Shown here one piece after another: positions 26,635 through 44,233 of a DNA stretch of 64,000 bases. The notes beneath the pieces are model-generated. The model made no database searches and was not told the origin of the DNA. It saw only the letters and a program-made list of their open reading frames with translations. A program made the translations under genes and the position numbers. The stretch is from Promethearchaeati archaeon (GTDB lineage Archaea > Asgardarchaeota > Heimdallarchaeia > Heimdallarchaeales > Heimdallarchaeaceae): NCBI GenBank assembly GCA_013166775.1, contig JABLTJ010000001.1, forward strand, positions 1-64,000. The letters are read 5' to 3'. Numbering within the stretch: position 1 is the first letter of the stretch; each line of letters begins with the position of its first letter.

Positions 26635-28439
26635 AATATGTTCCTGATACCTCTACTATAATAAATGGTCAGTTTTTAAAATACATCAAAGAACAGCAAG
26701 ATACAGATGAGATTATTCTTTCGCGAGTAGTTTTAGCAGAAATTGAAAACATGGCAAATCAAGCTAAAGCAACAGGAATGGTTGCTCTTGAGGAACTCCA
26801 AAGGATGAGAGATTTTTGTGCACAAAAAGGTTTAGGCATTATAATTGATGGAACTAGACCTAATTCTTATCAGATTAGGGGTGCTCCTGCTGGAGAGTTG
26901 GATGCAAAAATACGAGAACTTGCTGAAGAATACCAAGCGGTTCTTATTACTTCTGATAGAGTAATGGCAGAAATAGGAAAAGCCGAAGGATTAGCTGTAG
27001 TATATATTAAGGAATCTCCAAAGAGCATAGGAAAGAAGATAGAAGATTATTTTGATGAAAGAACTATGTCTATCCATCTAAGAGAAGACAATCCTCCATT
27101 AGCAAAAAAAGGAGTTCCTGGAAACTTTGAATTAGTTGCATTATCAGACGAAGGAATTCTTTCCCGCGAGTTTCTTGAAGATCTTGCAAAAGATATTGTA
27201 GAGAGAGCTAGTAGAGAAAAGGATAGTTTCATTGAATCAGATAAACATGGAACAACAGTTGTTCAGCTGAAGAATTCTAGAATAGTTATCATCAGACCTC
27301 CCTTTAGTGATGCTATGGATATAACTGCAGTAAAACCAATTCTTAAACTGTCCTTAAAGGATTATAGTCTTGATTCCAAGCTACTTGAAAGAGTAGAAAA
27401 GCAAGCTGATGGGATTATAATAGCCGGGCCACCTGGAGCTGGAAAGAGTACTTTTGCTACAGCTATTGCTGAGTTTTATGCGGATAAAGACAGGATTGTT
27501 AAGACTTTCGAAAATCCAAGAGATCTGCAAGTAGATAACAGGATTACTCAAATGTCTGGTTTTGAAGGAGATATCTCGGCTTCAGCTGATTTAGTGTTAT
27601 TAATGAGGCCTGATTATGTTATCTATGATGAGTTAAGAAAAACGAAGGATTTTGAGACCTACTCAGACTTAAGATTAGCAGGTATAGGTCTAATAGGTGT
27701 GGTTCATGCAACCCAAGCAATTGATGGCATACAACGTTTTCTGCGAAGGGTTGATTTAGGGATAATACCTTCAATAGTTGATACAATTATCTTCATAAAT
27801 AAGGGTGACATAGCAGAGGTTTATACACTCGAAATAACAGTCAAGCTACCGTCAGGCATGAAAGAACGAGACTTAACCCGTCCTGTAATATTAGTGAAGG
27901 ATTTCCATACAAATACATTGGAATATGAGATATACACTTTTGGAGAACAAATTGTTGTTGCTCCATTATCAAAAGCAGACAAAGCTAAGGCTGGAAGAGT
28001 TAGAACAGAAATTTCCCCAATAACAATTCAGAAGGTATTAAAGAGATACTCAATTTATGATTATGATTATGAATTTGATCCTCCAGACTCACTAATACTC
28101 TATGTAACAAAAAAAGATAAACCTAGAATAATAGGAAAAGAAGGAAAACGAATTGATGAAATAGAACAAAAACTTGGTCTATCAATTGATGTTAAAACCT
28201 TTGATGAAAAAGAAACTGCTGAATTTGTTATTGATGTGTATCCTATTAAGAATAAAGTAAACCTTTCGTTTCCAAGTATTTTCATAGGTAAAGATGCATC
28301 CATTGCTATTAATGGGAAAGTTATAGTTCAATTAACTGTTGGAAAGTCTGGGGAAGTCAGTATAGATAAAAATAGTCAAGTAGGCAGAGAATTAATGGAT
28401 GCTTATTCAAAAGGAGCTACCATTACAGCTCTTTTTTAG
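26631..28439 (+). CDS. PIN-domain ATPase with KH domain (PINA-like)
   Basis: VPDTS PIN domain, GPPGAGKST, RPDY..YDE.R, IIGKEGKRI KH motif. Confidence 0.9.
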   Translation: MKYVPDTSTIINGQFLKYIKEQQDTDEIILSRVVLAEIENMANQAKATGMVALEELQRMRDFCAQKGLGIIIDGTRPNSYQIRGAPAGELDAKIRELAEEYQAVLITSDRVMAEIGKAEGLAVVYIKESPKSIGKKIEDYFDERTMSIHLREDNPPLAKKGVPGNFELVALSDEGILSREFLEDLAKDIVERASREKDSFIESDKHGTTVVQLKNSRIVIIRPPFSDAMDITAVKPILKLSLKDYSLDSKLLERVEKQADGIIIAGPPGAGKSTFATAIAEFYADKDRIVKTFENPRDLQVDNRITQMSGFEGDISASADLVLLMRPDYVIYDELRKTKDFETYSDLRLAGIGLIGVVHATQAIDGIQRFLRRVDLGIIPSIVDTIIFINKGDIAEVYTLEITVKLPSGMKERDLTRPVILVKDFHTNTLEYEIYTFGEQIVVAPLSKADKAKAGRVRTEISPITIQKVLKRYSIYDYDYEFDPPDSLILYVTKKDKPRIIGKEGKRIDEIEQKLGLSIDVKTFDEKETAEFVIDVYPIKNKVNLSFPSIFIGKDASIAINGKVIVQLTVGKSGEVSIDKNSQVGRELMDAYSKGATITALF

Positions 28440-29160
28440 AATGTGAAGAGGGTTGATCTATAATTTCCACTGAATCTGGATGCCCAATAATCAAACGATG
28501 AATATCTAATGTAAAAATGCCGTTTTCTATAACTCCTGGAATGTTGTTAAGGTTTCTCTCAATCTCTTTTGGATTATACTGCTGTTTAAAATAGACATCT
28601 CCTATAATATTCCCATTATCTGAAATAACTGGTCCTATCTTTCCTTTTCCATAGCGAAGCTTGAACTCACCACCTAAGTTGTATATTGGTTCGACAACGG
28701 TATTAACTGCTAGAGGAAGGATTTCAATCGGAACGGGATGGCTAAGAAGATCTTTAGGGTATTTTGAATTATCAATAACTACAATAAACTCTTTAGCTGC
28801 TTTAGCCATTATCTTTTCCATTGTCAATGCCCCCCCTCCTCCTTTTAAGAGAACATAATCGCTAGTCACAATATCAGCTGAATCCACATAGGTGTCTAAT
28901 TCTGGAAATTCAACCAAAGTGGAAATGGATAATCCTGATCTAGCTAATTCTAAATGTGTTTCAAAAGAAGACGGAACAGTAATTATTTCAAGTTCATCTT
29001 GTACTACAAGTTCTGATAGAGCTTTAATAAAATACTTAATGGTGCTTCCAGTTCCTATTCCAACTATGAAATCATCGAAAACAAAGTCTTCCAAAGTTTT
29101 TTTTGCTGCAAGAACTTTGGCTTTTTCTTTCTGTGGTAGGTTATTGTCTGTAGTAGTCAT
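28423..29160 (-). CDS. rpiA: Ribose-5-phosphate isomerase A
   Basis: GIGTGST, DSAD, KGGGGAL..EK, SDNGN and PGVIENG motifs. Confidence 0.95.
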   Translation of the reverse strand: MTTTDNNLPQKEKAKVLAAKKTLEDFVFDDFIVGIGTGSTIKYFIKALSELVVQDELEIITVPSSFETHLELARSGLSISTLVEFPELDTYVDSADIVTSDYVLLKGGGGALTMEKIMAKAAKEFIVVIDNSKYPKDLLSHPVPIEILPLAVNTVVEPIYNLGGEFKLRYGKGKIGPVISDNGNIIGDVYFKQQYNPKEIERNLNNIPGVIENGIFTLDIHRLIIGHPDSVEIIDQPSSHSKKEL

Positions 29161-29316
29161 ATAATCTCTCGTATTAATTTCTATTACTTTATGTAATATT
29201 GTTATTTGATATTATTAAAATCTCACCCATTGAATATTTAGATATAAAATAAAATGAAAAGAAAATAACAATTTTCTATTTTCTTTTCTCTATAGTGTAT
29301 AACTTAACCTATTGGT

Positions 29317-30168
29317 TTATTGTTGCTCGCTCATAAATTTCTTGAGTCTATCAAGTTCCTTTAGCATCTCTTTCCTTAATGCAGCAATAGATGTGCTTTT
29401 AGCAAATAGATCTCCTTCTCCTTCTCCGGATGATGTTGATGCAGCGCCAGGAGGTTTAGGAGCTGGAATAGAAGGTGCTGGAATACTAGGTCCTGCAGCT
29501 GCTCCTGGAGGTTTTGGTGTAGGAGCTGGCATTGGAGGTGATGGTACTGATGTTGCTGGAGGAGTTTTTCCAACTGTTGGTGGTGGTGGAGGTGTTGCTC
29601 CTGCTGATGGCATTGGAGGGCTTGGTGGGCCTGCAGTTTTTCCAGACTTTGGTGTTGGAGGAGCTGGAGGTGCAACGCTAGTTTTAACCGCTGGTGTCTC
29701 AATCTTTGCATCACCTTTTATTTTACTTAAATAATCTCCTTGCATTTTCTTCAGTTCTTCTTCTAATTGAGATACTTCTACTTCTCTTGTAGTTTTCTCA
29801 ATTTCATCTTCTATTTTCTTAACATCAGATGCATATCTCACTGATAATCTTCCAAAGATTGTCTCACTTATTTCCTTCTTTCTATTGGCATCAGACAATG
29901 CTCGTTGCCCTGCTTCGAATTTAGCTTTTTCAATCTTTAATATAGCGATTCTTTCTGCAGGTGGGATATCACTTGGAGTAGGTATATCCGTTTCTAAATC
30001 TAGATCAAGTAATGAAGGTCCTTTTCCTTTCTTATATACTTTAGTTGTTAGAAACACTACTAACGCACTTAAGATGGTAAATATAACAACAAGATAAATT
30101 AGCATTTTTAAACCAGCATCAGTTAAACCGACTGGAGGTAAATTAGCAAACCACTCTGTAATCGACAT
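29317..30168 (-). CDS. Membrane-anchored coiled-coil and proline-rich protein with C-terminal WH2-like helix
   Basis: TM at aa ~22-41, helical/coiled-coil aa ~72-150, Pro-rich aa ~159-240, C-terminal STSIAALRKEMLKELDRLKKF; function inferred. Confidence 0.75.
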   Translation of the reverse strand: MSITEWFANLPPVGLTDAGLKMLIYLVVIFTILSALVVFLTTKVYKKGKGPSLLDLDLETDIPTPSDIPPAERIAILKIEKAKFEAGQRALSDANRKKEISETIFGRLSVRYASDVKKIEDEIEKTTREVEVSQLEEELKKMQGDYLSKIKGDAKIETPAVKTSVAPPAPPTPKSGKTAGPPSPPMPSAGATPPPPPTVGKTPPATSVPSPPMPAPTPKPPGAAAGPSIPAPSIPAPKPPGAASTSSGEGEGDLFAKSTSIAALRKEMLKELDRLKKFMSEQQ

Positions 30169-30323: not shown

Positions 30324-30971
30324 TTATGCTTTTTTTGCTTCTAATATCGCCTTTACTCTCTTCAATCTTGAAAAAGTCTCTCTTTCTTGTTCTTCAAGAG
30401 TGCTGGCAATAAATGTTGCTGTTGCTATTAGCTTTGGAATAAGAATATAGTTCAGAGCATTAACTCTTCTCTTTGTCTTATTAATTTCCAATGCAAGTTT
30501 CTCAAGAAGCGTCATTTTTTCAGCCATAATCATTAAAGTCTTCAAGGATTTTCGGAAGAAAATTATAGCTCTATCAAGTTGAGCACTTGAACTGGATAAG
30601 CCGTAAAATACATCCTCGCCATCTTTCTGAATTTCCTCTACAACAAAACGTGGGGATCTTACTCCCATTATACTTACAGTTTGTGTTTTGATTTCTAAAA
30701 CAGCAGGAGCATATAATGCTAAATCTCTTATTCTATCTGGTCCTAGAATCATTTCAGCTTTGGCTAAGGATTGATAAGCGATTAACAGTTCTTCCTCAAC
30801 TTGTTTTCTAGCTTGGCGGACTTCATCTTTAATTGCATACAACTCAATTACTAACGCATCCATTTTTTCCTTTAGGAGATCATGGCCTTTCTGAGCTAAT
30901 CGTATTCTAGCTCTAGTATCGAGTAGTTCCATTCTTGTTGCACTTATTGTGCCGAATTCAGGCGTCGCCAT
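30324..30971 (-). CDS. atpD: A/V-type ATP synthase subunit D
   Basis: TRMELL...A..GH.LLKEK.DAL, MGV..P, EI.KTKRRVNAL...LIP and ERE.F.RLK motifs. Confidence 0.95.
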   Translation of the reverse strand: MATPEFGTISATRMELLDTRARIRLAQKGHDLLKEKMDALVIELYAIKDEVRQARKQVEEELLIAYQSLAKAEMILGPDRIRDLALYAPAVLEIKTQTVSIMGVRSPRFVVEEIQKDGEDVFYGLSSSSAQLDRAIIFFRKSLKTLMIMAEKMTLLEKLALEINKTKRRVNALNYILIPKLIATATFIASTLEEQERETFSRLKRVKAILEAKKA

Positions 30972-41159: not shown

Positions 41160-42500
41160 TTACCCAAAAAGTCCTGGTGGAAGCCCTGGAATTTGCATGC
41201 CACCTCGTCTGCCTTTCCTCATACGTTTTACAAGCGATGTAACAGTTTTATGTTGGTTTACAAGCTCTCTAACTTCTGCTATTGTTCGACCACTGCCTTG
41301 AGCAATTCTTTGAATTCTTGAGCTGCTCAATTTTACCTTTCCATCTAGCTCTCCATCTGTCATTGAAGACATAATAACCTTGAATCTTTTCATGTTCTCT
41401 TTCGAGAGATCAAGCATATCTTCATCGAGCGACATTCCAAGCCCAGGAACCATAGATAACATCCGTTTCATGGATCCCATAGAACTAAAATTATCCAAAA
41501 GTTCCATCATCTGCCTATAAGAAATCTTCCCGCTTAGCATACTCATTGCTTCTTCTTTTGAAGGAAGGATTTCCATATCTCGTACTTCTTTTAACAATCC
41601 TTCTAAATCTCCAACTCCAATGAGTCTACCAACAAAAGATGTTGGATTAAATTCTTCTAGAGCGTCTACATCCTCTCCATCAGCTAAGAATTTAATAGGT
41701 ACTTTTGCTGCTGCTGCCGCAGAAAGACTTCCTCCTCCTTTAGCAGAACCATCCATCTTAGTGACAATAATCGAACCGATTTTTGTTGTTTGAGAAAATG
41801 CTAAGGCTTGATCATGTGCAGCTTGACCTTGATTGCCATCTACAACCAGAATAATCTCATCTGGTTTAATTTTGTCACTTATATCTTTCATCTCTTTTAG
41901 AAGTGACTTTTCCTCCTTGTGACGACCTGCAGTATCGATGATTATTACATTAAATTTCTCATCTAAGAATTTTTTAACACCATCTACAGCAATTTTAACG
42001 GCGTTGTTGTTTTCAGGATCACCATAAACTGGAACATCTATTTTTTCACATAATTGTTGAAGTTGCTCGTAAGCTCCAGGTCTAAAATTATCTGCTGTAA
42101 CAACAGCAACTTTCTTACCTCGTTTCTTTATATATTTCGCGAGTTTTGCTGTGGTTGTTGTTTTTCCAGAACCTTGAATACCAACAAGTTCAATCAGTGT
42201 AGGCCGATCAGGATGAAGTTTTAAGGGATAAGCTTTTTCTCCCAAAAATTTAGTTAATTCCTCATGAATGGTTGAGAGAACACTTTTCTTACGAGAAAGC
42301 CCATCTGGTAATTCTTTCTCGAAAGATTTTCTTTCTACTTCGTTAACAACACTAGCCGCTAAATCAAATTGGACATCAGCTTCAAGCAATGCTCTTAACA
42401 TTTCATTCTTTAGTTCTTGAATTGTTTTTTTATCAGGAGGTCCTCCTCTGATTATCTTTGTAATTGCTTTGTTAAGAGCTGTACCAAGTTTGTTCAACAT
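41160..42500 (-). CDS. srp54: Signal recognition particle protein SRP54
   Basis: ALLEADV, GIQGSGKTTT, DTAGRH, TKMDGSAKGGG, M domain SMT..E...SRI.RIA.GSG. Confidence 0.97.
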   Translation of the reverse strand: MLNKLGTALNKAITKIIRGGPPDKKTIQELKNEMLRALLEADVQFDLAASVVNEVERKSFEKELPDGLSRKKSVLSTIHEELTKFLGEKAYPLKLHPDRPTLIELVGIQGSGKTTTTAKLAKYIKKRGKKVAVVTADNFRPGAYEQLQQLCEKIDVPVYGDPENNNAVKIAVDGVKKFLDEKFNVIIIDTAGRHKEEKSLLKEMKDISDKIKPDEIILVVDGNQGQAAHDQALAFSQTTKIGSIIVTKMDGSAKGGGSLSAAAAAKVPIKFLADGEDVDALEEFNPTSFVGRLIGVGDLEGLLKEVRDMEILPSKEEAMSMLSGKISYRQMMELLDNFSSMGSMKRMLSMVPGLGMSLDEDMLDLSKENMKRFKVIMSSMTDGELDGKVKLSSSRIQRIAQGSGRTIAEVRELVNQHKTVTSLVKRMRKGRRGGMQIPGLPPGLFG

Positions 42501-42581: not shown

Positions 42582-43334
42582 TTACTCATTTAATTTTATT
42601 GGTTCTCTGTTAGTTTTAGCTTTACGATGTACCTTTATGGAATCTTGGTAATATATTTGTCCTTGTACATCTGAATACTTGCGGATATGAACATCTCGTC
42701 CTTTAACATCGTTTTTCACTATTGTACCTCTTAGATTTACTCTGTTTTTGCTAATAATAGATCCTGATATTTTGTATGGCCTATTTGATCCCTGCTTTAT
42801 AGCAAAAATGTTCCACCCTCTCTTTTTCCCAAGAGTAACATTGTTAGCAAATATATTCCCAGAGACAGATACAGATCCCTTTACTTTCACATCGCTTTCG
42901 GTTAAGATGTCTCCACCAGTACTAGCTGATCCAAAAATCATTATGTTTGATCCAGTTTCTATGCTGTTTCCTGATTTAATTGATCCAAAAGCTTTAAGTT
43001 TTCCTTTTAAATCAATTTTTTCTCCAATGCTTGCTGAACCAAAAAATCTTGCATTTTCTGTTCCTTGAAGCGATCCAGCAATACTAAAAGAACCAGAATT
43101 CTTAACTGATCCCTGTGAAATTATTGCGCCATTACCTCTTGTTGAGCCACGACTCTTAAATCCATGACATTCAAGATTTCCCTCTATTTTTGCAGATCCA
43201 GAGGATTTTACAAATTTCTCTATTTTACCTCCTGCTATTCTAACTGATCCCATTACTTTAATTTTAGTTTCCTTTTCTTTTATTCTTCCAGAAGAGCTAA
43301 AAGATGCTTTTTTTTCTTGTTGCATTTCACTCAT
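42582..43334 (-). CDS. Bactofilin-like (polymer-forming cytoskeletal) beta-helix protein
   Basis: Repeated (S/F)GS..I.G.l beta-helix units; C-terminal V...V.G..V.I.....V.G.IYY. Confidence 0.72.
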   Translation of the reverse strand: MSEMQQEKKASFSSSGRIKEKETKIKVMGSVRIAGGKIEKFVKSSGSAKIEGNLECHGFKSRGSTRGNGAIISQGSVKNSGSFSIAGSLQGTENARFFGSASIGEKIDLKGKLKAFGSIKSGNSIETGSNIMIFGSASTGGDILTESDVKVKGSVSVSGNIFANNVTLGKKRGWNIFAIKQGSNRPYKISGSIISKNRVNLRGTIVKNDVKGRDVHIRKYSDVQGQIYYQDSIKVHRKAKTNREPIKLNE

Positions 43335-43342
43335 TTTTTCAC

Positions 43343-44233
43343 CTACAGTTTTAATTTCTCATAACTTATTTTTACGGGCTCTTTATGCAATTTTGCTTTA
43401 TCATCAATGTCAACTTTTTCAACATAATATACTGTCCCCTTTACTTCAGAAAAAGGTCCTATTTCTACAAAAACACCTTTAACATCCTGTTCAACAATTG
43501 TATTTCTTAGTATTACTTCTTTTGTTCCAAATACACTGCCTTTGACGATAGATGGTCTACTTCTCTTTAATCTATGTGCAACTACATCTTTGTTAATTCC
43601 AACATCCTCACCCACTAGATTACCTTCAATCTGTGTTCTTCCAGCAAGTGATACGGTACTTTGGGAAAGCATGTTTCCTTCAACTTTCGATGAACCTGCG
43701 ATTCTGATACCATTTTCTGCTTGCAAATCTCCTCCACATGAGAAGCTTCCTGAACTACCAAATTTACCTCCAATTAATACTTCACTTCCAACTTTACAGC
43801 TTCCTGCAACATTAACATCGTAATCTGCATGTAGAAATCCCTCACATTTGAATGAACCAGAGGTTTTAACATTGCCATGAGCGGTTATGTTGCCTGCACT
43901 TCTTACAGATCCTGCAGCTTTCAAATTATTACAAATAATATCATCGGAGAACTTGGCTGATCCAGCAACTCTAATATCTCTATCCACATTCCCACCATTA
44001 ATGGTTACTGAACCTGCAAAAGAAGCTACAGTATCAGAAATTGTCTGAGCACCAGCTACTTTCATTCTAGGTGTTGCCTTGCGTTTCTCTGCGAATTCTT
44101 TAGCAATCTCAAGTTTTTCTGTGTATCTTTCTTTTAATTCTTCATAATTCTCTTTATCAATCTCATTTTCTTCTCGTCTTTTTTCAAGAAGTTCTAGCAA
44201 TTCTTTATACATTTTGTATTCATTTTCAGACAT
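43343..44233 (-). CDS. Bactofilin-like beta-helix protein with N-terminal helical hairpin
   Basis: Repeated (V/A)AGS....G.l units; C-terminal V.G..V.IGP.SEV.G.VYY; charged helical N-terminus. Confidence 0.75.
   Translation of the reverse strand: MSENEYKMYKELLELLEKRREENEIDKENYEELKERYTEKLEIAKEFAEKRKATPRMKVAGAQTISDTVASFAGSVTINGGNVDRDIRVAGSAKFSDDIICNNLKAAGSVRSAGNITAHGNVKTSGSFKCEGFLHADYDVNVAGSCKVGSEVLIGGKFGSSGSFSCGGDLQAENGIRIAGSSKVEGNMLSQSTVSLAGRTQIEGNLVGEDVGINKDVVAHRLKRSRPSIVKGSVFGTKEVILRNTIVEQDVKGVFVEIGPFSEVKGTVYYVEKVDIDDKAKLHKEPVKISYEKLKL

Follow-up and report, generated by a model that had tools for sequence, protein, structure and literature searches.

Introduction

No known relatives of eukaryotes are closer than the Asgard archaea, which form actin-filled protrusions, and we know of no Asgard factor that ties either actin or ESCRT to the membrane. 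The WH2 motif has a characteristic layout, made up of a short helix of two to three turns, a non-helical spacer and an extended L-[KR]-[KRH]-[TV] stretch. In arcadin-2, a conserved C-terminal helix following an unstructured linker binds the hydrophobic groove of crenactin (PMC5173319). The main Asgard actin regulators named in a preprint of December 2025 are profilins and gelsolins only (10.1101/2025.11.30.690169). The present work deals with a gene for a 283-residue protein found in a stretch of 64,000 nucleotides (the window: positions 1 to 64,000 of contig JABLTJ010000001.1, assembly GCA_013166775.1, from a Promethearchaeati archaeon of the Heimdallarchaeaceae). The original prediction, made from the letters of the window, had proposed a membrane-tethered, polyproline and WH2-like actin factor. 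The protein ends in a near-invariant helix, and appears to belong to an undescribed family of docking adaptors spread over much of the phylum.

The terminal helix and its proline-rich arm

The gene and the two elements that characterize its family are placed as follows.

29317-30168, minus strand: open reading frame (ORF) for the 283-residue protein, with an ATG start; coordinates exact.
29320..29409, minus strand: terminal amphipathic helix, residues 254-283, near-invariant, with the core S-I-x-x-L-R-x-E-M-L-x-E-L-x-R-L-K-K-phi-M.
29410..29712, minus strand: disordered proline-rich arm, residues 153-253, with 33% proline, a predicted local distance difference test score (pLDDT) mostly below 50, and an acidic patch, EGEGD, at its end.

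The best characterized element is the terminal helix. The AlphaFold2 model, built on an alignment of 51 sequences, predicts a single helix of 29 residues and about five turns at residues 254-282 (pLDDT 69-78; end ...LDRLKKFMSEQQ), which bears out the terminal amphipathic helix of the original prediction and places the LKK singled out there, residues 275-277, inside it. The pattern FAKSTSIAALR.EML.EL.RLK is fixed even in relatives of 33% overall identity: F255-R265, M268, L269, E271, L272, L275 and K276 do not vary in the alignments of 26 and 51 relatives, and in 31 tails sampled across the phylum M268, L269 and L272 are likewise fixed, with L264, R265, E271, R274, L275 and K276 nearly so. The expected conservation of LKK among orthologues thus holds for L275 and K276 and fails for K277, in place of which Heimdallarchaeum has A or T and other members have S, G, Q, N or D.

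When the codons of the gene were compared with those of 28 orthologues from its own family, the end helix showed 52% synonymous and 1.4% non-synonymous differences, and therefore the constraint lies on the peptide and not on the DNA. The end helix is under extreme purifying selection, with synonymous change saturated. The corresponding values are 34% and 16% for the helical hairpin described below and 24% and 44% for the arm, whose length and sequence are variable. On a helical wheel, read by eye for the 31 tails, the variable positions 262, 263, 266, 270, 273 and 277 share one face; to judge from the aligned tails, such a pattern, with one face free and the rest fixed, marks an amphipathic helix whose wide face is buried in a partner's groove.

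The end helix has also been considered as a coiled-coil oligomerisation element like the Ena/VASP tetramerisation helix, bundling the arms or linking the heads of the family. The hydrophobic residues I261, L264, M268, L272, L275 and M279 follow a 3-4 spacing with L269 and F278 flanking, the helix is terminal after a proline-rich region, as in VASP, and the only PDB sequences matched by the helix profile are GCN4 leucine-zipper constructs, via E-[VL]-A-R-L-K-K-L (E about 0.2, not significant). Self-interacting surfaces, however, can co-vary freely and are rarely identical throughout a phylum, whereas genomes ranging from Heimdall- to Loki-type have this helix in nearly unchanged form, and its fixed polar residues (R265, E271, R274, K276) together with two fixed methionines suggest a specific partner. 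Moreover, neither the EVH1/WH1 nor the VASP_tetra model matched the 283-residue protein or any of the 31 tails, so that the VASP-like helix offered as an alternative in the original prediction finds no backing by profile, and self-association is decidedly unlikely as the role of this element.

Some minor matches to the helix can be set aside. A feature search of the ESM Atlas with residues 250-283 gave no usable match. Residues 258-265, STSIAALR, give a sub-threshold match to the OAR motif (PF03826, 12.6 bits against a cut-off of 20.1), seen in 18 of the 31 tails; since OAR is, to our knowledge, confined to animal homeodomain (paired-like) proteins, the match is probably due to chance or convergence. 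An ORF at C78:6147-7082, considered as a diverged second copy of the helix in the same genome, scored 6.7 bits and was judged to be noise.

As regards the arm, its proline content of 33% is the highest 100-residue value among the 3721 ORFs of at least 100 residues in the host genome, that is, the genome from which the window comes. Both the window (about 34%) and the genome have a guanine plus cytosine (GC) content of 34%, and against this background the proline composition of the arm is far from chance. Its coding sequence has a GC content of 52.5%, compared with 33% in the remainder of the gene, and therefore the composition is held against mutational drift. All the proline motifs quoted in the original prediction (PPAPPTP, PPSPPMP, TPPPPPT, PSIPAPSIPAP and PKPP) are found within residues 153-253, and two elements can be distinguished among them:

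29578..29592, minus strand: the only run of five prolines, residues 193-197, in TPPPPPT, read from the sequence.
29449..29490, minus strand: semi-conserved element PSIPAPSIPAPKPP, residues 227-240, present as PSIPAP..P.PKPP in most close relatives.

The TPPPPPT run is kept in close relatives and lost in Heimdallarchaeum-type and more distant members. At the position of PSIPAPSIPAPKPP, distant membrane-anchored relatives carry arrays of up to about 16 SIP[ATS]P units.

A phylum-wide family with interchangeable heads

The distribution of the helix was followed with a 40-position profile of the tail, which gave 40 matches (E up to 0.001) among 1.84 billion representative proteins. In nearly all the full-length matches the motif is C-terminal, and about 30 of the 40 are divergent clusters of one and the same plan, consisting of LPPxGL, a transmembrane (TM) helix, a basic stop, a hairpin with G-E-I-S-x-x-A-Y, an acidic helix, proline repeats, an acidic patch and the end helix. 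For the 283-residue protein itself, a word-indexed search of 5.8 billion proteins gave 86 relatives, all annotated 'hypothetical' and, where the source organism is named, nearly always from Heimdallarchaeota/Heimdallarchaeaceae. A six-frame search of 399 Asgard genomes with the helix profile gave matches in 236; of the 90 genomes of high quality, 58 were matched.

In genomes outside the window's own class, most of the matching proteins are soluble and 190-260 residues long; they have a helical head of some 55 residues and repeats of the GPPKPP type, and their tail reads G-L-S-S-L-R-D-E-M-L-x-E-L-x-R-L-K-K-I-M. In one family, f5, the module is carried on a multi-pass membrane protein of about 570 residues, and a multi-pass membrane protein of 580 residues is among the matches in the representative proteins. 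Furthermore, one Ras/Roc-type GTPase has two copies of the helix, on either side of a PIPPPPPHLP stretch, and another protein has three tandem N-terminal copies about 41 residues apart. At least five heads have thus been found for the end helix: TM helix plus hairpin, multi-pass, small soluble, Ras/Roc GTPase fusions and the protein with three tandem copies. This variety of heads argues for a common partner acting in trans, and not for binding of the helix to its own head. The fused GTPases (L055:368-1561, minus strand; and P0121) combine the Ras/Roc-type domain, polyproline and one or two end helices with a C-terminal cysteine-rich, zinc-ribbon-like domain.

The 283-residue protein has the terminal helix core preceded by a disordered proline-rich arm by which this module family is recognised, and by sequence it represents the membrane-anchored type that prevails in the class of the window. 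The family as a whole looks like an undescribed, phylum-wide (pan-Asgard) docking adaptor, as far as comparison of its members allows. The anatomy given in the original prediction is supported, and so is the general idea behind it, a membrane tether presenting a conserved terminal peptide to a cytoplasmic partner.

It might instead be supposed that the protein has no specific function, being a low-complexity membrane protein whose tail is motif-like by chance. The zero matches of the 283-residue protein to Pfam and NCBIfam families and the lack of a conserved operon would suit such a view; it is nonetheless already contradicted by the conservation data, namely extreme purifying selection on a helix with saturated synonymous change, the presence of that helix in 236 of the 399 Asgard genomes, and an arm kept against the base composition of the genome. 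It deserves hardly any credence.

The host genome also contains a second family of the 'arm plus invariant tail' type, outside the window (contig C1:164802-165704, minus strand; locus L084:4803-5705). This protein has a soluble, near-invariant helical head (KSLVNSVNMVKNMVESIV...), an acidic and proline-rich arm with SIPVPPIPESIPVP and APPPPAPKP, and the invariant tail PEEGKSAELFGEAVSGDKAELLKALKKLEDL, to which the end-helix profile gives no match. It has 57 relatives, the named ones being almost all from Heimdallarchaeota/Heimdallarchaeaceae.

Membrane anchor and hairpin

The N-terminal half of the protein comprises the following parts.

30118..30168, minus strand: putative extracytoplasmic N-terminal peptide, residues 1-17, with the motif W-F-x-N-L-P-P-x-G-L, from family conservation.
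30043..30105, minus strand: single TM helix, residues 22-42, a predicted N-out/C-in signal anchor; hydrophobic, with an AlphaFold2 helix at 18-46 (pLDDT about 86).
29962..30042, minus strand: basic stop-transfer segment and disordered juxtamembrane loop, residues 43-69 (pLDDT below 50 at residues 49-62).
29713..29961, minus strand: alpha-helical hairpin of the AlphaFold2 model, residues 70-152, with the signature LKIEK...AL...KKEISExxFxRLSxRY.

Within the N-terminal peptide P12 is invariant and L10 and P11 are nearly so across the family, LPPxGL being retained in relatives at about 20-35% identity; the model predicts a short helix ahead of the TM helix. The TM helix itself agrees with that of the original prediction, which had placed it at about residues 22-41. 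Its flanks carry a net charge of -1 on the N side and +4 on the C side (TKVYKKGKG), and distant relatives have RRR or RKR at the position of the basic flank. From these charges, by the positive-inside rule, the C-terminal part should be cytoplasmic and residues 1-17 should lie outside the cell. The juxtamembrane loop contains PSLLDLD and DIPP...ERIAIL, both conserved in close relatives.

The helical or coiled-coil stalk that had been proposed for residues 72-150 proved right as to its helical nature and wrong as to its being a single stalk, since the model gives a hairpin of two helices, 70-96 and 102-152 (pLDDT 85-90). A fold search with the full model found only generic alpha-hairpins (HIV gp41, OST1, CdvA, Snf7 and ESCRT-I, Z up to 9.8), with Z values below the level expected for helical proteins. 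By sequence, the best PDB match of the hairpin profile is the cytoplasmic domain of the MK-D1 OST1 (8whn_A, E 0.034, 17.4 bits, 54 residues), whose chain is also among the tied fold matches (Z 9.1, root-mean-square deviation (rmsd) 2.0 over 71 residues). Against the ORFs of the host genome the hairpin profile gave no other significant match, an OST1 homologue included. The second-best match there is the product of 43343-44233, the N-terminal hairpin motif of which (…EENEIDKENYEELKERYTEKLE) resembles that of the 283-residue protein; together with 42582-43334 it forms a tandem of bactofilin-domain genes (PF04519, 30.6 bits each, both on the minus strand) beside SRP54 (41160-42500).

The OST1 match bears on the reading in which the end helix docks an Asgard-wide protein other than actin or Vps4, such as a small GTPase or its regulator, a ubiquitin or ESCRT-I/II component, or the ribosome-translocon machinery. 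The cytoplasmic domain of the MK-D1 OST1, also known as ribophorin I, pulls down ribosomes (PMC11417166), and the resemblance of the hairpin to it hints at the ribosome-translocon; the match is marginal, was not reproduced within the host genome, and the end helix itself has no specific ribosome link. Fusion of the helix to Ras/Roc-type GTPases in at least two proteins points towards the small GTPases, which are nevertheless too diverse to account for an invariant ligand. A third candidate was a conserved protein of about 88 residues, the steadiest neighbour of the soluble member in Loki-type genomes and two other families. None of the 82 other genomes in the window's class, the one with the best conserved helix, encodes it, and it occurs in families where the helix was not found; because of that absence (0/82) it has been ruled out as a universal partner and cannot be the common receptor. 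Taken together, a partner drawn from this broad class is quite possible, although short of probable.

The protein of about 88 residues (...FLGLAEYFHTVVIKKGDxFYIPH...) occurs in 178 of the 399 Asgard genomes, for instance at L058:8487-8753 (plus strand), L057:8297-8572 (minus), L059:14038-14310 (plus) and L049:261-557 (plus). Its gene lies beside that of the soluble member in the Loki-type families f20 and f26, and about 3 kb off in one f19 genome.

Actin and ESCRT as candidate partners

Within the docking-adaptor family, the single most likely partner of the end helix is, in our analysis, actin, an assignment that stays tentative. The mechanism proposed would be as follows. The hairpin may pair or cluster the protein at the membrane, and the arm may provide a flexible tether that is long and polyproline-II-like. 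The end helix would be the docking peptide, its wide conserved face entering the groove of a very conserved, Asgard-wide cytoplasmic protein. More speculatively, that groove could be the hydrophobic one between subdomains 1 and 3 of actin, bound in the manner of arcadin-2 or of the WH2, gelsolin and cofilin helices, by analogy and not by homology to WH2. In that case the protein might link the membrane to actin monomers or to the ends of filaments, and the proline arm might contribute weak contacts with profilin.

The partner must be Asgard-wide and highly constrained, and actin fits, the main actins being 72-82% identical throughout the phylum. By comparison, ESCRT-III tails, the confirmed ligands of MIT domains, drift between lineages where the end helix stays fixed. 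All the helix-bearing families with more than one genome sampled have actin, and the host genome, as the original prediction had supposed, encodes it, at two loci (about 445 bits) plus one paralogue, along with three gelsolins of two domains each. Within a single Loki-type family, three genera have an actin paralogue (about 296 bits) at a distance of 1-6 kb from the gene for the soluble member. Moreover, the tandem copies and the GTPase/polyproline fusions recall the layouts of eukaryotic actin nucleators. As for profilin, the Heimdall and Thor proteins do bind a proline peptide of VASP, but their affinity for it is only sub-millimolar to millimolar (PMC8410842).

Several results weigh against actin, the first group of which concerns WH2. 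The WH2 model PF02205 matched neither the whole protein (E up to 1) nor residues 226-283 (E up to 5), and neither it nor the VASP models matched the 31 phylum-wide tails at E up to 10, a range in which the HMMER filters discard most matches above about 0.1. LKK lies within one continuous predicted helix, the third of its residues varies across relatives, and position 278 always has F, L, I or Y where WH2 has T or V. The 283-residue protein thus cannot be recognised as a WH2 protein, the resemblance being one of layout only, and on this point the original prediction is not supported. The second group concerns the arm: its repeat unit switches between lineages (SIPAP, SIPTP, SIPSP, GPPKPP), long polyproline runs are not conserved across the family, and Asgard profilins have been reported as not regulated by polyproline (PMC8410842, introduction). 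Thirdly, a PIG-L deacetylase gene, adjacent to the actin paralogue, sits between it and the soluble member in the Loki-type family mentioned above, and no actin gene was found near the helix gene in ten other lineages. Finally, the heptad-like pattern of the helix is also compatible with a coiled coil, and actin is present in 358 of the 399 genomes, including families without the helix by profile. Since actin is nearly universal, the co-occurrence of the motif with it carries no weight. The profilin model PF00235 matched nothing in the host genome and, because it matched none of the control genomes either, says nothing about profilin.

A stronger version of the actin reading would make the helix an Asgard-specific actin-groove binder fed with profilin-actin by the arm, the protein a membrane-bound factor for actin assembly or anchoring, and its relatives a whole prokaryotic family of such factors. 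In our analysis this is unlikely. If true, it would provide a missing link from lokiactin filaments to the membrane in protrusions, and the WASP/VASP-type regulators would have in it a forerunner or an analogue in function.

The ESCRT system offers another reading: the end helix would be a MIM1 of Asgard type, docking in the MIT domain of Vps4, and the protein a CdvA-like adaptor composed of a membrane-bound hairpin, a linker and an ESCRT-recruiting peptide. The host genome has two ESCRT-III genes and one Vps4, which carries the only MIT domain of the genome. M268, L272, L275 and K276 reproduce the MIM1 spacing (phi4, phi8, phi11 and basic 12); in terms of the MIM1 consensus, (D/E)xxLxxRLxxL(K/R), the acid of position 1 is absent and R7 is replaced by E271, as in the ESCRT-III tails of the host. 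This glutamate matches that of both host tails and of several from other Asgard lineages, examples of glutamate-bearing tails being LEEELQSLKKK, LEAEIQKLRRK, LREEVKKLKKK and IRKELEDIKKG. The spacing phi-xx-E-phi-xx-phi-K-K of M268-K277 is shared by the host tails (…DLEEELQSLKKKVSE and …DLEAEIQKLRRKEE) and by most of the ESCRT-III tails examined from three other lineages. Only 6 of 9208 ORFs have phi-xx-E-phi-xx-phi-[KR][KR] within 10 residues of the C-terminus, among them both ESCRT-III proteins and the 283-residue protein, the pattern having been defined after the sequences had been inspected. With respect to CdvA, the hairpin of one distant relative (P0112, one of 29 hairpins) matches the CdvA model PF18822 below threshold (E 3e-4, 21 bits, cut-off 30), and the CdvA hairpin 9s9g is among the tied fold matches (Z 9.1, rmsd 1.5 over 71 residues).

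Against this, an unbiased search with the phylum-wide helix profile ranks the host ESCRT-III tails 565th and 783rd of 5609 ORF matches, at -1.5 and -1.9 bits, so that the MIM-like alternative of the original prediction agrees with the hydrophobic spacing and fails in the profile ranking. The drift of the ESCRT-III tails beside a fixed end helix would be unexpected if the same MIT groove read both. The conserved helix is about twice the length of a MIM1, its N-terminal, tandem or internal copies are unusual for one, and the CdvA fold match is below the noise level for helical proteins. Furthermore, the gene and the ESCRT-III/Vps4 cluster are about 245 kb apart in the host and 326 kb apart in a complete Odin-like genome. 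The Vps4 reading is unlikely.

The best match of the host genome to PF18822 is, again below threshold (20 bits), a protein of 275 residues encoded on contig C27:63406-64233 (plus strand), with an N-terminal zinc ribbon and repeated helical hairpins of the G-x-I-S-x-x-x-Y type.

Locus and host genome

The host genome comprises 3.85 Mb and is 88.7% complete. Its DNA is present in metagenome runs from marine sediment, and no RNA run was listed. The gene is flanked by two genes on the same strand, included for context only:

30324-30971, minus strand: atpD, A/V-ATPase subunit D, upstream neighbour (PF01813, E 4e-53).
28423-29160, minus strand: rpiA, ribose-5-phosphate isomerase, downstream neighbour (PF06026, E 1e-52).

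In Heimdallarchaeum endolithica the adjacency to rpiA is retained and that to atpD is lost, and the three distant relatives examined have neither of the two beside the gene; the gene belongs to no conserved operon, and rpiA has no evident functional link to it. Other ATPase subunit genes are absent immediately upstream of atpD, and an apparent A/V-ATPase proteolipid (c-subunit) ORF lies about 245 kb off, beside the ESCRT-III/Vps4 cluster. Two shadow ORFs cover the coding region of the arm (29312-29734, plus strand, 140 residues; 29376-29714, minus strand, 112 residues); they are by-products of its GC-rich repetitive codons and not genes.

Significance

The end peptide, of 20-30 residues, is among the most constrained elements measured in this analysis, and it is carried by a family with an adaptor layout spread across much of the phylum. 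Should its partner be actin, this would be a finding of the first rank for eukaryogenesis; should it be Vps4 or another protein, the family would still define a new, Asgard-specific recruitment system.

Comparison with known systems

The order of parts in the 283-residue protein (targeting part, proline-rich region, amphipathic helix with L-K-K) is that of WASP/WAVE/WIP and of the Ena/VASP GAB region, and the relatives with tandem copies or fused small GTPases follow a logic reminiscent of the eukaryotic nucleators. It differs from WH2 proteins in the lack of a profile match, in its continuous predicted helix of about five turns and in the non-conservation of the third K and of the T/V position, and from the regulators that contain WH2 in having no EVH1, GBD, FH2 or acidic-W element.

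With the MIM1 tails of the Vps2/CHMP1-3 class, which are read by the MIT domain of Vps4, the protein shares a C-terminal amphipathic helix after a flexible linker and the spacing phi-xxx-phi-xx-phi-K. Unlike ESCRT-III proteins with MIM1, it has no Snf7 core, its profile similarity to them is at chance level, its helix is longer and more conserved, and its gene is far from the ESCRT genes.

CdvA of Thermoproteota and ZipA of bacteria, both membrane tethers for division filaments, likewise combine membrane binding, a helical or charged region, a disordered linker (rich in P and Q in ZipA) and a partner-binding end. The 283-residue protein has neither the PRC barrel nor the E3B peptide of CdvA, and it is without a globular domain such as that by which ZipA binds FtsZ; the Pfam models of CdvA, ZipA and SHOCT gave no match to it. 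As for OST1/ribophorin I, the cytosolic domain of the latter is a four-helix bundle placed after the last TM helix, whereas the 283-residue protein has one hairpin and lacks the luminal domain of ribophorin.

Arcadin-2 of Pyrobaculum likewise has a structured core joined to a small, conserved helix at the C-terminus by a linker that is not conserved and is presumably unstructured, its last 17 residues docking in the hydrophobic groove of an actin homologue (PMC5173319). It shows no sequence similarity to the 283-residue protein, is soluble, is encoded in the arcade cluster beside crenactin and depends on a tryptophan for binding; the 283-residue protein is membrane-anchored, has a far longer, proline-rich arm and is not encoded next to actin in the host genome.

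Finally, the unnamed pan-Asgard proteins made up of head, proline arm and end helix, of Heimdall-, Loki- and Odin-type and all hypothetical, have the same helix core and arm. Their Loki-type forms differ in being small and soluble, with a short head and repeats of the GPPKPP type, and the f5 form in being multi-pass.

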